From: a virus
Length of the DNA stretch: 64,000 nucleotides
Virus record (IMG/VR): IMGVR_UViG_3300025168_000043
Coordinates: 32,377-96,376 of that record
Strand: one strand, 5' to 3'
Both the position numbers and the translations under genes were made by a program. The first letter of the stretch is position 1. Every line of letters starts with the position of its first letter. Of this stretch, positions 31,926-53,012 are shown piece by piece. The notes beneath the pieces are model-generated. The model did no database searches and was not told the origin of the DNA. It was given only the letters and a program-made list of their open reading frames with translations.

Positions 31926-32678
31926 ATGAAAATCACCAAAAAACTTTTAGAGCAAATGATTGAGGAAGCAGCATCGGAGTATGTCTACGGTATTAAAAAT
32001 CCCGGTCGTGTTGCCAACCAATACAAAATAAAGACAATCAAGAAAGTTATCTTTGAAGAGTTGTCCACAAACCTTAACGAAGATGGCCACGAAGACACAT
32101 CCTCAGCAATAAGAAAGTTGAAGACTTCTATTGAAGACGCAGGAGAAATCCTACAAGGTCTCCAAGCACACCAAGGAGATCTTCCCTCTTGGTGGATGGG
32201 CAAAGTAACTATCGCTGCTGACTATCTTAACAAAGCCAGAGACTACTTCCTTGTTTCCGGTGATGTGATGCAAGAAGAAGAGTTGGACGAGCGATGTCAA
32301 AAAGGTTATAAAACCCACGACACCCAAAAAACAAAACAAATGTTTGGAAAGACTTACCGCAACTGTGTAAAAGCAGAGGGTATGGAAGAGGATGCGATGG
32401 ACGAGATCTTTGGCCTTACCAATAATATCTCCTCTAACATTCTACATCTAAGCAAAGAAGACCGAGCACTTATTGAGCGTGACCTCGAAGAGATCAGAGA
32501 GTTGGCGCAAATGGAAGTGATGGACGAGCGCAAACTAAAACCGACCGAAAAGAAGAAACTTAAACGACTTGAAAAAGAAGTTCCCAAAAAAGACTTTACT
32601 GACCAGTATGGAAAGGAAGGCGAATCTATTTACTATGCCACATTAACTAAAATGGCGAAAAAGGGCAAGAAGAAATGA
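31926..32678 (+). CDS. Putative internal head polyprotein with leader and several modules
   Basis: MKITKKLLEQMIEE; modules separated by LNE, LDE, MEE, MDE. Confidence 0.6.
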   Translation: MKITKKLLEQMIEEAASEYVYGIKNPGRVANQYKIKTIKKVIFEELSTNLNEDGHEDTSSAIRKLKTSIEDAGEILQGLQAHQGDLPSWWMGKVTIAADYLNKARDYFLVSGDVMQEEELDERCQKGYKTHDTQKTKQMFGKTYRNCVKAEGMEEDAMDEIFGLTNNISSNILHLSKEDRALIERDLEEIRELAQMEVMDERKLKPTEKKKLKRLEKEVPKKDFTDQYGKEGESIYYATLTKMAKKGKKK

Positions 32679-48513: not shown

Positions 48514-48554
48514 CAGAATAATCCAATTAAATTAATTAAAAGGAGGTGATTAAA

Positions 48555-50294
48555 ATGTCAATATTAAATAAATTAACTGAAGGAATCGTGAACCGCGATC
48601 TCCGTCAGGAAGGCGATGCCCTTATCTCTAAATGGGAAAAGACCGGTCTCCTCGAAGGACTCAATAATGATTCTTCGAAGAACGGAATGGCCCGACTTCT
48701 TGAAAATCAAGCCAAGCAGCTTCTGAAAGAGGCTTCTTCTATGGCAGCAGGCGATGTGGAAGGTTTTGCTTCCGTCGCATTCCCGCTCGTTCGCCGCGTG
48801 TTCGGTGGTCTTTTGGCCAACGATCTCGTTAGTGTTCAGCCGATGAGTCTCCCAAGTGGTCTCATCTTCTTCATGGACTTCACTTACAGTGACAGTCGTC
48901 TCGGTCTTACCGATGGTGAGTCTGTCTACGGTGGTGGTGTTGTGGCTAAGGGCATCCAAACAGGTGTCACGGATGTTAAGGAAAGTGGTGGTGGTTTCTA
49001 CAACCTTGCCAATGCTTACTCGCATCCTACTGCCTCTGTGACTGTCCAGATGGACAATGTTGTTGTCGCCGGTTCAACCGTTGCGGCTACCACTACAGAT
49101 GCAAACAAGAAGCTGATTCGTTTCGACCCGGACATTCTTGGTGATAGTACAAACCGTATTGCTGTTTTCAAAGGCGACAATGTTGTTGGTACTGATCTTC
49201 CAAATCTCAACAGAGATATGGTGACTGCAATCGAGGCAACGGCTGGTACGTTCAACCTTGGTAACGGTACTCAAGCTCGTCGTCTGACTTTCATCGATGC
49301 CGATGACAAGTTGAACGTCGTTTTCTTCAGAACTGGTGGCGCTATTACAGATCCAACCAGTACACAGACTCTCGTTCTTAGTTACCCAATTGCCGATAAG
49401 TTCGACAATGGTGGAGCTACTCCGGGTTCTGTGGTCGGTGGCGATCCTTGGGGCCTTGAAGAAGCTACTAATGCTACTCAAGCTTCCTCTGCATCAGGCG
49501 CTGGAGCCAAAGATGTCATCCCTGAGATCGACATTAAGGTGGACTCGGTTGCTGTGACAGCGATGACCAAGAAACTGAAGGCCAAATGGTCGCCAGAACT
49601 CGGTCAAGACTTGAATGCATACCACAACCTCGACGCTGAAGTTGAGTTGACCTCGATCCTGTCGGAGCAAATTGCTCTTGAGATCGATCGTGAGATCGTG
49701 AACGACTTGATCCAAGGTGCAACTGCTGGTACATTCTACTGGTCGCGCTCTCCGGGCCTCTTCGTGAACCGCACAACTGGTGTTGAAATCGGCGCTGCTT
49801 CGGCTGCTCCTGACTTCACTGGTACGGTTTCCGAGTGGTATGAAACCCTCATTGAGACCATCAATGATGTGTCGGCTCGTATTCATGTGAAGACTCTTCG
49901 CGGCGGTGCAAACTTCCTCGTGACCTCACCTGAAGTTGCTAACATCCTTGAGTTCACCGCTGGCTTCCGTGCTAGTGTGACTGCTGACTCCGATCGCGGT
50001 ACCGCAGGTGCAATCAACGTCGGTTCTATCTCTAAGAAGTTCGACATCTATGTCGATCCTTACTTCCCACGGAACGTCGTACTCGTCGGCCGTAAGGGTG
50101 GTAGCTTCCTTGAGTCGGGCTATGTTTACGCTCCGTATGTGCCCCTACAGGTCACGCCAACTATCTTCGGCACCGAGGACTTCGTACCTCGTAAGGGCGT
50201 CTTGACGCGCTACGCCAAGAAGATGGTCCGTCCTGATATGTACGGTCTGGTTATTTGTCGCGGACTCCTTGGTGAAGCTGGTGCAACTAGCTAA
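48555..50294 (+). CDS. Major capsid protein (T4 gp23-like)
   Basis: KWEKTGLLEGL, ARLLENQ, PLVRRVF...VSVQPMSLPSGLIF, KLKAKWSPELGQDLNAYH, YAPYVPL, PRKGVLTRY; SD aggagg, ATG 48555. Confidence 0.96.
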   Translation: MSILNKLTEGIVNRDLRQEGDALISKWEKTGLLEGLNNDSSKNGMARLLENQAKQLLKEASSMAAGDVEGFASVAFPLVRRVFGGLLANDLVSVQPMSLPSGLIFFMDFTYSDSRLGLTDGESVYGGGVVAKGIQTGVTDVKESGGGFYNLANAYSHPTASVTVQMDNVVVAGSTVAATTTDANKKLIRFDPDILGDSTNRIAVFKGDNVVGTDLPNLNRDMVTAIEATAGTFNLGNGTQARRLTFIDADDKLNVVFFRTGGAITDPTSTQTLVLSYPIADKFDNGGATPGSVVGGDPWGLEEATNATQASSASGAGAKDVIPEIDIKVDSVAVTAMTKKLKAKWSPELGQDLNAYHNLDAEVELTSILSEQIALEIDREIVNDLIQGATAGTFYWSRSPGLFVNRTTGVEIGAASAAPDFTGTVSEWYETLIETINDVSARIHVKTLRGGANFLVTSPEVANILEFTAGFRASVTADSDRGTAGAINVGSISKKFDIYVDPYFPRNVVLVGRKGGSFLESGYVYAPYVPLQVTPTIFGTEDFVPRKGVLTRYAKKMVRPDMYGLVICRGLLGEAGATS

Positions 50295-50318: not shown

Positions 50319-50349
50319 AACCCGCTCTCTTCGGAGGGCGGGTTTTTTT
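50319..50349 (+). terminator. Rho-independent terminator after MCP
   Basis: AACCCGCTCTC-TTCG-GAGGGCGGGTT followed by T run. Confidence 0.9.
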
Positions 50350-50400
50350 ATGCTTATACTAAACTAAGAAACTATTTATAAGTGACTTGGAAATACTCTC

Positions 50401-50457
50401 CGGGGTCGAGGCCACTGACCCTTGAAGAAATCTGACCGAAGTGGCTGGTCTTTTTTC
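50401..50457 (+). ncRNA. Candidate structured RNA: two hairpins with complementary (kissing) loops
   Basis: Stem GGGGTC/GACCCT with loop GAGGCCACT; stem GACC/GGTC with loop GAAGTGGCT; loops pair over 7 nt; late motif at 50370 just upstream. Confidence 0.55.
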
Positions 50458-50507
50458 GTGATTATTAACAAGTTATCGATAACTTAACTTAAAAGGAGAA
50501 ATTAAAA

Positions 50508-51038
50508 ATGGGAAGTCGAAGAATAGGATTAGCGCGATTTGAGGCGTTGCTAGAAGCGGTCGATAGAGACCTCAATCTTGAAAACTCAACATTAACTAAC
50601 TGTACAATCACAACAAACGCAGCGTGTACTTTCACCGGTACAACCCGTCTGCTTCACACCTCTGGCGTCATCAGACACCAAGGCGCCGAAGCGACGACTG
50701 CCGATGATACGGCGGTTGTCACAGCAGCAAACGTTTTGACACAAATCGTCAAGTGTACCCCCGGAGCCGACCGAAGCAAAGCTACCGATACAGCAGCTAA
50801 CTTTGTTTCAGGGCTAAATCTAACAGCGGATAATGATTCGTTTGATTTTCACTTCATTAACTTAGCTACTGATGGAACATCTGCCGTTACGTTAACCGCC
50901 GGCTCAGGTGTGACTCTTGTCGGTCGTATGGTTATTATGGCACAGGATGCAGCCGAGGATGCAGTTGCGGAAGGTGTTGCTACTTTCCGTGTTCGTCGTA
51001 CTGGCGCTACAGCCGTTACGATTTATCGTATTGGCTAG
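50508..51038 (+). CDS. Virion protein, possibly capsid decoration
   Basis: 176 aa Thr/Ala-rich beta protein right after MCP; SD aaggag; followed by a terminator. Confidence 0.5.
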   Translation: MGSRRIGLARFEALLEAVDRDLNLENSTLTNCTITTNAACTFTGTTRLLHTSGVIRHQGAEATTADDTAVVTAANVLTQIVKCTPGADRSKATDTAANFVSGLNLTADNDSFDFHFINLATDGTSAVTLTAGSGVTLVGRMVIMAQDAAEDAVAEGVATFRVRRTGATAVTIYRIG

Positions 51039-51060: not shown

Positions 51061-51095
51061 GGCCCCCTTCCAGTTTTGGTTGGGGGTTTTTTTTT
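51061..51095 (+). terminator. Rho-independent terminator
   Basis: GGCCCCC...GGGGGTT followed by long T run. Confidence 0.75.
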
Positions 51096-51096
51096 A

Positions 51097-51125
51097 TTGA
51101 CACATATAACATATTGTGTTATAAT
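51097..51125 (+). promoter_or_regulatory. Consensus sigma70 promoter
   Basis: TTGACA, 17 bp, TATAAT with TG extension. Confidence 0.85.
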
Positions 51126-51593: not shown

Positions 51594-51630
51594 AAGTAAC
51601 TTTTAATAACGATTTGGTTGTTGGCACCCG

Positions 51631-51663
51631 GCCCCTCACCTTATTGGTGGGGGGTTTTGTTTT
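51631..51663 (+). terminator. Rho-independent terminator
   Basis: CCCCTCACC-TTATT-GGTGGGGGG then TTTTGTTTT. Confidence 0.75.
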
Positions 51664-51698
51664 GTGTAAACTATTTATACTGTATAGGAGAAAAACGT

Positions 51699-53012
51699 AT
51701 GGCTGTACCTACTCTAACACCTGCTAGCACGACAAGTAAGGTTATACTGACATCAACAGGTAGCACCGAAGCTACTGGCAACGGTGCAGCATCCGCAACT
51801 CATTATCCTTTTGGGATATACGTTGATACGACATCAGCCTTGTTCGATGCTAACTTCATTTCAGGTGCCTCAGATCAAGTTGCGTACACTTATAAAAAGC
51901 TTGGGGGTGATGTTCTAGATATTGAACTTACAGTAGGAAATGTTTACGCAGCCTACGAAGAGTCTGTTTTAGAATATACTTATCATATAAATAAACATCA
52001 AGCAAAGAATGTTCTTGGTAGCCTATTGGGCTTTGCCACTGGAACCTTTGATCATGACGGCCAAATGACCGGTGGCGATGCCTCTGGTTCAGCAGTTAAC
52101 TTGGCTTTTCCTAAGTTTAAGGTTGAATATGCTAGGAAAGTTGGAGAGGGTTTTGCAGAAGAAGCAGGCATTGGCGGAGATAATACTTTTTACTCTGCAT
52201 CGTTCGCTCTAACTTCTGGTGTGCAGGACTATGATTTACAAACAATTATATCACGATCCGCAACTACAAATGTAGACGAAGCATCAGGCGGGTCAGTTCC
52301 ATACGCTGATTTGGTTGGCAATAGAAAAGTAAAAATTCAAAAAGTGTTTTATAAAACCCCCGGTTCTATGTGGAGGTTTTATGGTTATTATGGCGGTCTT
52401 AATGTAGTAGGCAATCTCAACTACTATGGACAGTATTCAGATGATAGTACTTTTGAAATAATACCTGTATGGCAAAATAAACTTCAAGCTATGGCATATG
52501 AAGACCATCTGTTTACAAGATTATCCCATTATTCTTATGAGCTTTTTAATAATAAATTAAGACTCTTTCCTATTCCTCATGGATTTATTCCTCATATGTG
52601 GGTTCAGTTTACGATAGATAGTCAGCCTTGGACAGAGGATTCAGACAGAAAGAATGGCACAGACGGTATTAATAACATGAACACTCTGCCGTTCGATAAT
52701 ATACCCTATAAGAACGTTAACGCCATTGGCAAGCATTGGATCCGTCGTTACGCTCTCGCGCTCTGTAAGGAGATGCTAGGCCAGATTCGCGGCAAGTTTG
52801 GTGGTAGTATCCCAATCCCCGGTGATAATGTAACTCTCAACTCAGCCGACCTCTTGGGACAAGCAAAAGAAGAGCAAGATTATCTCAAGGAAGAGTTAAA
52901 AACTATTCTAGATGAAATGACCTACAATGCCCTCGCAAAACAAGACGCTGAAAAGATTGAAGCCATAGACAAGGTGAACGGCGGTATTCCATTAATGATT
53001 TATCAGGGGTAA
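51699..53012 (+). CDS. Neck/head-tail adaptor protein (T4 gp13-like)
   Basis: KKLGGDVLDIELT, WIRRYALALCKEMLGQIRGKF...IPGDNVTLN; ATG 51699 after SD aggag and late motif 51669. Confidence 0.8.
   Translation: MAVPTLTPASTTSKVILTSTGSTEATGNGAASATHYPFGIYVDTTSALFDANFISGASDQVAYTYKKLGGDVLDIELTVGNVYAAYEESVLEYTYHINKHQAKNVLGSLLGFATGTFDHDGQMTGGDASGSAVNLAFPKFKVEYARKVGEGFAEEAGIGGDNTFYSASFALTSGVQDYDLQTIISRSATTNVDEASGGSVPYADLVGNRKVKIQKVFYKTPGSMWRFYGYYGGLNVVGNLNYYGQYSDDSTFEIIPVWQNKLQAMAYEDHLFTRLSHYSYELFNNKLRLFPIPHGFIPHMWVQFTIDSQPWTEDSDRKNGTDGINNMNTLPFDNIPYKNVNAIGKHWIRRYALALCKEMLGQIRGKFGGSIPIPGDNVTLNSADLLGQAKEEQDYLKEELKTILDEMTYNALAKQDAEKIEAIDKVNGGIPLMIYQG

Follow-up and report, generated by a model that had tools for sequence, protein, structure and literature searches.

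A conserved RNA with two mutually complementary loops in the leader of a capsid-spike-like gene of uncultured marine T4-like phages

The DNA analyzed here (hereafter, the window) is a 64,000-nucleotide stretch, positions 32,377 to 96,376, of IMG/VR record IMGVR_UViG_3300025168_000043, a 96-kb virus contig with an estimated completeness of 53%. The phage belongs to an uncultured marine T4-like lineage. At the protein level, its major capsid protein (MCP) is nearest among cultured phages to that of Flavobacterium phage immuto (47%), followed by those of Microcystis phage Mel-JY01 and RM378, and a nucleotide search of cultured phages returned two short MCP matches and nothing more, so that the phage has no cultured relative. 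The element of interest lies between the MCP gene and the gene for a capsid-spike-like protein, surrounded by genes that form a T4-type head and tail module (Table 1). An intrinsic-terminator-like hairpin closes the capsid transcript just upstream, and a comparable terminator after the MCP gene is visible in most relatives. No reading frame of more than 37 codons crosses the element, and a search of the genome found no second copy; there is one copy per genome.

Table 1. Genes and RNA features at the leader locus, in window coordinates
Feature	Position	Strand	Description
Prohead protease			PF03420; T4-type head and tail module around the leader
Ribosomal protein bS21			PF01165; 3 kb upstream of the leader
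Coiled-coil, scaffold-like protein			Between bS21 and MCP in the gene order
Major capsid protein gene (T4 gp23-like)	48546..50294	+	Upstream neighbor; phrog_138, E 2.4e-71
Intrinsic-terminator-like hairpin and T run	50319..50349	+	11-bp stem with 7 G-C pairs, then T run
Late-type promoter motif	50370..50379	+	AACTATTTAT; enriched, upstream of structural genes
Helix P0, 5' strands	50382..50395	+	GUGACUUG 50382-89; AAUA 50392-95; present in the MFE fold
CU-rich anti-SD-like junction stretch	50396..50401	+	CUCUCC here, UUCUCCU(UU) in most copies; between P0 and H1
Hairpin H1	50402..50422	+	GGGGTC 50402-07, loop GAGGCCACT 50408-16, GACCCT 50417-22
Loop-loop (kissing) helix	50410..50446	+	GGCCACU 50410-16 with AGUGGCU 50440-46
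Hairpin H2	50424..50457	+	Upper stem GACC 50434-37, loop GAAGTGGCT 50438-46, GGTC 50447-50; lower stem GAAGAAA 50424-30 with TTTTTTC 50451-57
Helix P0, 3' strands	50463..50476	+	UAUU 50463-66; CAAGUUAU 50469-76
Palindromic hairpin H3	50470..50485	+	AAGUUA-UCGA-UAACUU
Shine-Dalgarno sequence and start codon	50493..50510	+	AAGGAGA 50493-99; start codon 50508-10
Capsid-spike-like gene	50508..51038	+	176 aa
gp15-like protein, tail sheath			Listed after the capsid-spike-like gene

The product of the downstream gene belongs to no Pfam family and has 139 homologues, none of which carries a name; a search of this spike-like protein against 50,697 phage records gave no match. It consists of three parts: its basic N-terminal helix and its beta-rich C-terminal domain of ~110 aa are conserved, whereas a G/T-rich beta segment is variable. 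In the PDB, its AlphaFold (AF2) model (mean pLDDT of 89.5) best matches the capsid spike of Pseudomonas phage Pa223 (9ny6_C; E value of 5.7e-4, with a TM score of only 0.34), and tailspike and baseplate N-domains come next. From this predicted structure, capsid spike or decoration fiber is a reasonable but weak assignment.

A first-pass annotation of the window, made from the sequence alone, had noted a late motif at 50370 and an unusually long leader (~125 nt) behind it, and both observations hold. The motif has 23 matches (≤1 mismatch) against 7.9 expected, mostly directly upstream of plus-strand genes, many of them structural, and from the end of the motif to the ATG the leader measures 128 nt, compared with 16-49 nt at nine other motif-led genes. 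Because the Shine-Dalgarno (SD) sequence of other genes in this phage begins as little as ~6 nt past the motif, transcription probably starts within a few bases of it, which would place the 5' end of the present mRNA at ~50383-50386. The distance from the motif to the first of the two loops described below is 27-30 nt in 130 of the 132 copies listed, mostly 28-29 nt. The one seawater metatranscriptome consulted (11% of sampled words) gave contigs only over 49905-50119, within the capsid gene, leaving the leader uncovered, and is uninformative either way.

At the center of the leader stand two hairpins, H1 and H2, whose 9-nt loops (L1, GAGGCCACU, and L2, GAAGUGGCU, in RNA letters) each open with an unpaired GA and pair through their remaining seven nucleotides, forming six Watson-Crick pairs and one G-U pair. 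The two 7-mers are non-palindromic and complement each other, not themselves; as a bare duplex, they have a predicted energy of -10.1 to -11.6 kcal/mol. H2 is prolonged by a lower stem, set off from the upper one by a 3-nt bulge. All of this agrees with the first-pass annotation, whose coordinates for both hairpins, 9-nt loops, seven-pair loop complementarity, and extension of H2 by GAAGAAA/TTTTTTC are confirmed. The fold of the single sequence is, by contrast with its shuffles, unremarkable (z = -1.6), a value too weak to carry the argument, so that the case for the element rests on homologous copies and their covariation.

Relatives were sought in two ways. A protein-guided search with the MCP yielded the 80 closest MCP loci, five of which, with a covariance model, proved to bear the leader and show visible compensatory changes in it. 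At the remaining loci either the leader or the gene downstream is different, and in L002, the closest relative (MCP identity of 85%), the leader is unrelated. Pattern scans of IMG/VR and one scan of public metagenomes raised the total to at least 132 distinct, complete copies from viral and metagenome contigs. Since the early scans for loop variation held most loop bases fixed in their patterns, the loop invariance that they returned arose by construction and they could not test the loop-loop helix; the scan that replaced them was anchored on the leader, the anti-SD stretch, and H3, wholly outside H1, H2, and both loops. One early scan also returned six GC-rich chance matches (L131-L136), which are unrelated. 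The 185,579 representative bacterial and archaeal genomes scanned gave 0 matches and hence no clue to the host.

The setting of the element is constant. Of the 143 testable loci, 141 have a homologue of the MCP on the same strand that ends <400 nt before the element, at a median distance of 87 nt, and the gene family that follows is always the same, encoding a capsid-spike-like protein of ~190 aa whose frame opens AUGGG.... The features in between keep a single order: promoter motif, AACUUGA, UUCUCCU, H1, H2, a near-invariant palindromic hairpin (H3), SD, and AUGGG.... Both loops consist of G(A/G) followed by seven pairing bases in 132 of the 132 copies listed, their sequences being G(A/G)GGCCACU and GA(A/G)GUGGCU or covarying variants of these. 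All 132 copies listed have a spacing of 21-22 nt between L1 and L2, and mostly one of 25-26 nt between L2 and H3; in contrast to this rigid core, H3 and the SD lie anywhere from 5 to 16 nt apart.

Covariation was assessed in a MAFFT alignment of 69 sequences <90% identical (A2) and in a covariance-model alignment of 100 sequences (A4). Over the whole structure, 93.8% of the cells in A4 form a pair, versus 84% after column shuffling and 34-47% with slid partners, and 21 of the 33 pairs have changed on both sides; 0 of 500 shuffles of A4 reached any covariation measure, and the result for the MAFFT alignment is likewise. H1 is paired in 99.5% of cells and has changed on both sides at three of its four pairs (G-C, A-U, and U-A); H2 is paired in 88.6%, with changes to both partners at 10 of its 11 pairs and up to six pair types at a position. 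In the loop-loop helix, every cell (100%) is paired: pair 4 is C-G (88 sequences) or G-C (12), pair 5 is A-U (85) or G-C (15), pair 7 is U-G (63) or U-A (37), and the four other pairs are invariant. The first-pass annotation had named covariation in both stems and in the loop-loop helix as the check on its idea of a conserved RNA element; all three covary, and with at least 132 distinct homologous copies the idea is borne out.

Only four loop combinations occur among the 132 copies listed, all of them fully complementary and without a single loop mismatch. It was the scan anchored outside the loops that supplied the decisive variant, GGCGGCU with GGCCGCU. On a tree of the MCP C terminus, the double-variant loop type has at least two origins on well-supported branches and four on the full tree, and the GGCCGCU/AGCGGCU type needs one, counts that leader recombination could inflate. 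G-U pairs are frequent in the loop-loop helix (100% at pair 1 and 63% at pair 7), and because they are common, and fixed at pair 1, the pairing belongs to the sense strand only, that is, to RNA. Judged from these sequence comparisons, we conclude that the element is a real, conserved, folded RNA of uncultured marine T4-like phages and that its two loops base-pair.

The same evidence bears on the possibility that these letters act as DNA, as a protein-binding inverted repeat or a site of packaging or replication, or that the complementarity arose by chance. L1 and L2 do constitute an inverted repeat, and about half of the copies have an H3 that reads as a perfect palindrome in DNA. The frequent G-U pairs, however, would be C-A mismatches on the opposite strand or in duplex DNA, the stems covary while their sequence drifts, the half-sites of H3 vary in spacing, and loop mismatches occur in 0 of the 132 copies listed; we consider both a DNA-level element and chance to be extremely improbable.

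The first-pass annotation was right about the central hairpins and missed what surrounds them, namely, a long-range helix (P0), the hairpin H3, and a CU-rich stretch complementary to the SD (anti-SD). The alignments show P0 as a helix that encloses H1 and H2 in a three-way junction and would run from the predicted 5' end of the mRNA. The divergent clades represented by L103, L066, and L081 retain it despite their different sequence (GACCUAAGAAAU with AUUUCUUGGUU in L103 and GAUUUGAAU with AUUCAGGUU in L081). Its part P0a is paired in 98.3% of cells, mostly through wobble-compatible transitions, with two of six pairs changed on both sides; P0b is paired in 86.5%, with four of five pairs so changed.

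Between P0 and H1, the anti-SD stretch can pair with the SD over 7-10 contiguous positions in 125 of the 132 copies listed, and over only 5 in this window. A single position of this pairing varies (U-A in 111 copies, U-G in 14, C-G in 3, and C-A in 4); the core is invariant and there is no informative covariation. The sequences of the junction differ between the two main classes (UAGAAAG...CAUUGA versus CUUGAAG...UUCGUGA).

The most conserved stretch of the family is the near-invariant H3. Of the 109 copies whose H3 stem is unextended, 60 close it with a G-C pair and 49 with G-U. The loop of H3 is UGCA, UCGA, or ACGU, each a palindromic tetranucleotide, and its GTTA/TAAC half-sites are spaced by 2, 4, or 6 bp. 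The G-U closing pairs and the inconstant half-site spacing led us to reject H3 as a duplex-DNA operator and to regard it as an RNA hairpin. In every class, divergent ones included, H3 overlaps the 3' strand of P0 by 3-6 nt, and because the two share these nucleotides, P0 and H3 are mutually exclusive.

This architecture also separates the two forms that the first-pass annotation had envisaged, a late noncoding RNA (ncRNA) or a 5' untranslated region (UTR) element. The 5' UTR stands; a free-standing ncRNA does not, given the fixed spacing to the promoter motif, the continuation into the SD and ATG, and a U run that is unconserved. Transcription stopping at that U run after H2 (50451-56) would release a separate small RNA of ~70 nt made of H1 and H2, and in this window H2 followed by TTTTTT did score as terminator-like. 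Most relatives lack the U run, however, with AAUACAAUCAUUGA and similar sequences following H2 instead, P0 pairs sequence on either side of the two hairpins, and the spacing to H3 is conserved, all of which makes a small RNA of this kind very unlikely.

Taken as part of the mRNA, the leader most likely controls the amount of capsid-spike-like protein that is made. As to how, we lean toward the view that this ~125-nt 5' leader of a late mRNA is a three-way junction acting as a two-state gate. The mRNA would begin a few bases past the promoter motif, with P0 forming from about the first transcribed bases. In the first state, P0 would be closed, the 5' end base-paired and thereby shielded from 5'-end-dependent decay, and the anti-SD held in the junction, leaving the SD and AUG free, so that the mRNA would be stable and translated. 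In the second, P0 would be open, its 3' strand refolded as H3, and the anti-SD paired with the SD, turning translation off and exposing the 5' end. The kissing interaction would lock or tune the first, open and protected, state, and candidate triggers for a shift in the balance are temperature, Mg2+, a protein, or RNA concentration.

The gate is supported by the overlap of P0 and H3 in every class, by the capacity of the anti-SD to pair with the SD, and by the near-equal energies of the two folds. ViennaRNA folds constrained to closed P0 or to anti-SD:SD plus H3 differ by 0.7 ± 3.3 kcal/mol, and each is favored in 48 of 100 sequences, both figures excluding the kissing energy and having no null control. 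These near-equal alternatives suggest a gate on both translation and mRNA stability, and of the three functions that the first-pass annotation had put forward (translational operator, stabilizer, or self-oligomerizing RNA linked to head assembly), a combination of the first two is favored; the leader may be linked to head assembly through the nature of the downstream protein only. Against the gate count the anti-SD:SD pairing, which shows no informative covariation and amounts to only 5 bp in this window, the scarcity of true double changes in P0a, where transitions are mostly wobble compatible, and the geometry of the kiss: by our geometric estimate, the unequal H1 and H2 and the junction strands of 6-7 nt make an intramolecular 7-bp loop-loop helix sterically demanding. 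The near-invariance of H3 and the junction further suggests a sequence-specific partner beyond what a two-state gate entails.

Several of these points could equally be read without any switching. A constitutive structural leader, in which a 5' domain locked by the kissing loops protects the mRNA or keeps the AU-rich ribosome-binding region open and in which the anti-SD and H3 are incidental, would account for P0 beginning at the inferred 5' end at a fixed spacing from the promoter, for the anti-SD lacking covariation, and for strong SDs being general in this phage. It has a precedent in ompA-type leaders, whose 5'-terminal stem-loops stabilize Escherichia coli mRNAs. A stabilizer, however, requires no near-invariant sequences in the junction, loops, and H3, the overlap of P0 and H3 is preserved in classes of different sequence, and the alternative folds are nearly isoenergetic; we therefore hold a purely constitutive leader to be possible and a good deal less probable than the two-state gate.

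The geometry of the kiss raises a different possibility, that the loops pair between molecules, L1 of one leader with L2 of another, in a head-to-tail homodimer or oligomer to which H3 may add a contact. Covariation cannot separate intramolecular from intermolecular pairing, and in the ROOL RNA a kissing loop that had been called tertiary from covariation proved to be quaternary by cryo-EM (bioRxiv 10.1101/2024.12.08.627333). The arms of our element are unequal (4-6 bp in H1 versus 11 layers in H2); by geometric estimate, an antiparallel dimer would give two equal bridges, each composed of H1, the 7 bp, and H2, and a coaxial intramolecular version would have to span ~23 stacked pairs with linkers of 6-7 nt. 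All H3 loop types are, moreover, palindromic tetranucleotides. On the other side, each loop has two unpaired purines that, together with junction strands of 6-7 nt, provide slack, a bent or side-by-side intramolecular arrangement is possible, and a dimeric mRNA leader has no evident biological role. Side-by-side arms joined by a long intramolecular loop-loop helix are known from the lysine riboswitch. We regard a self-associating leader, its loops pairing between molecules and its palindromic H3 in contact, as doubtful, on a par with the constitutive leader; if the loops do pair in this way, the function of the leader would depend on the concentration of the mRNA late in infection.

The leader could also be a sensor for a trans-acting factor. 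The junction might hold an aptamer for a small molecule, or the RNA might be a protein operator, bound by the N terminus of unassembled spike protein or by a Rom-like protein that recognizes kissing complexes. The element has the architecture of a tuning-fork aptamer, with a closing helix and a downstream hairpin in competition, two arms with interacting loops, and a highly conserved unpaired junction, and the regulated protein has an arginine- and lysine-rich N terminus. Yet metabolites would not usually be expected to control the gene of a structural spike, and the two main classes have different sequences in the junction. The basic N terminus also occurs in homologues with unrelated leaders and is thus not tied to the RNA; autoregulation through it has no specific support and is not favored for this reason. 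A sensor of such a trans-acting factor seems to us unlikely, more so than either the constitutive or the self-associating leader.

The element represents a new RNA family built on principles already known. The first-pass annotation had proposed a search of Rfam, and none of its families matched: Rfam 15 gave no match at E ≤ 10 over 50380-50464 in the window and none at E ≤ 1 over the element in three typical members (L185, L202, and L066), the models RF00167, RF00044 (pRNA), RF01068 (mini-ykkC), and Mu-gpT-DE included. A literature search found no description of the motif.

The known RNAs with which it can be compared differ from it as follows.

(i) The purine riboswitch (RF00167) shares a closing helix around two hairpins with contacting loops (the three-way junction of our element being supported on 100 sequences), a closing-helix 3' strand that also belongs to a downstream alternative hairpin, and conserved junction nucleotides. 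Its loops, however, are of 7 nt and joined by two G-C pairs plus quadruples, compared with 9-nt loops and seven contiguous pairs here, and its arms are equal; those of the element are unequal (4-6 bp versus 11), and the element precedes a virion-protein gene and has no known ligand.

(ii) The dimerization initiation site (DIS) of HIV-1 forms a stable loop-loop helix from a 9-nt loop in which the G+C-rich pairing block has unpaired purines on its flanks, but its 6-nt block is self-complementary and pairs two identical genomes, whereas the element has two different loops on one RNA.

(iii) The pRNA of phi29 is likewise a phage RNA with two mutually complementary loops per molecule, which pair intermolecularly into a ring. 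It is a free, portal-bound ncRNA with 4 bp in this contact and drives DNA packaging; the element, an mRNA leader with 7 bp, continues directly into the SD and ATG of a structural gene and is unconnected with the packaging motor.

(iv) RNA I and RNA II of ColE1 form a 7-bp loop-loop helix of comparable stability in a complex that a protein (Rom) can read, but they are two antisense transcripts that act in trans to control replication, unlike loops carried on the same sense transcript.

(v) In the guanidine-II riboswitch (mini-ykkC), access to the SD depends on the kissing of two neighboring 5' UTR hairpins. These pair in a ligand-dependent manner through two bases of ACGR tetraloops, with no enclosing helix, as opposed to the 9-nt loops and seven pairs of the element.

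(vi) ROOL and GOLLD are phage encoded and have covarying kissing loops, theirs being intermolecular and building homo-oligomers; they are free ncRNAs of 500-800 nt near tRNA islands, not a 125-nt mRNA leader.

(vii) The leader of T4 gene 32 is a structured T4-type 5' leader in which a tertiary (pseudoknotted) fold precedes a ribosome-binding region that is unstructured. Its fold is different, its gene encodes a single-stranded DNA-binding protein known to autoregulate, and neither its sequence nor its model resembles the element.

(viii) With the class of SD-sequestering leaders, the element has in common an upstream anti-SD that can pair with its own SD and an alternative, SD-freeing fold of comparable energy (with no null control).

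To our knowledge, structured cis-regulatory RNAs have seldom been described from the structural modules of DNA phages, and hardly ever from the abundant uncultured marine T4-like lineages. The present motif is tractable, being ~125 nt long, widespread (at least 132 copies), attached to a single gene family, and clearly covarying, its 7-bp loop-loop helix included. Its stable, programmable 7-bp kissing pair, with four natural loop pairs that look orthogonal, is a possible module for RNA nanotechnology. It also lends itself to asking whether the kissing of natural short leaders occurs in cis or in trans and whether a three-way junction with a built-in anti-SD serves as a sensor. Were the loops to pair between molecules, leaders of the spike mRNA would dimerize or oligomerize late in infection, giving a concentration-dependent switch of translation or stability or an RNA scaffold for head decoration, and no natural mRNA 5' UTR of a DNA phage would have been shown before to act through kissing between molecules; if the three-way junction were instead an aptamer that senses a ligand or protein, its presence in a virion gene would be of comparable novelty. 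For the phage itself, the ribosomal protein bS21 encoded 3 kb upstream makes control at the level of translation seem a theme of the genome, and the motif offers a way into the question of how a phage meters a capsid accessory protein relative to its MCP.

Relatives that lack the kissing loops carry a second conserved leader, unrelated to the kissing-loop leader, upstream of the gene homologous to the spike-like gene. This second type, which lies downstream of MCP (major capsid protein) genes at loci L002, L006, L022, L024, L029, L039, L047, L058, L072, and L079, runs from variable hairpins through GACAUGAUUAUAAAUGG and GGAGGGUU to AUGGG, with a GGUAAAACC hairpin sometimes following GACAUGAUUAUAAAUGG. 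Because the closest relative by MCP (L002, 85%) has the second leader type and not the kissing-loop type, leaders appear to have been swapped between lineages.

In the protein encoded after the leader, the first ~25 residues (MGxxRxGLxRxEALLE..., encoded at 50508-50585 in the window) recur in proteins whose C-terminal parts are completely different. This N-terminal stretch looks like a common capsid-anchoring module to which exchangeable distal domains are joined.

In the window only, a U6 run (50451-50456) directly 3' of H2, the second hairpin of the kissing-loop element, renders that hairpin terminator-like; most relatives lack the U-run, and any attenuation at this site would therefore be lineage specific. 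At 2 of 143 loci (L183 and L299), ~0.8 kb separates the MCP gene from the element, a gap suggestive of a gene insertion. All loop types seen in H3 (the palindromic hairpin at 50470-50485, 3' of H2, and its homologues) are palindromic tetranucleotides (UGCA, UCGA, or ACGU), such that the whole hairpin is self-complementary through its center, which is more than an intramolecular hairpin needs.

Other features of the region are listed below. Midway through the late structural module, just 3' of the spike-like gene, a terminator-like hairpin is directly followed by a consensus sigma-70 promoter (together, 51067-51125). Farther downstream, the open reading frame (ORF) listed from a TTG at 51618 probably starts at an ATG near 51699 (window 51618-51701); its listed 5' part holds a further terminator-like hairpin and a copy of the late-type promoter motif.

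Transcription signals and a ribosomal protein gene near the kissing-loop leader
Feature	Position in window	Details
Ribosomal protein bS21, phage encoded	47188-47463	PF01165, 45.9 bits (cut-off, 27)
Terminator-like hairpin	51067-51094	With T9 run
Sigma-70 promoter	51097-51125	Perfect consensus: TTGACA, 17 nt, TATAAT, TG upstream
Terminator-like hairpin	51630-51656	Within listed 5' part of TTG-51618 ORF
Promoter motif copy	51669	Within listed 5' part of TTG-51618 ORF

With the protease gene on one side and the scaffold gene on the other, the bS21 gene lies 3 kb upstream of the kissing-loop leader, and its product may be relevant to Shine-Dalgarno-dependent translation in the phage.
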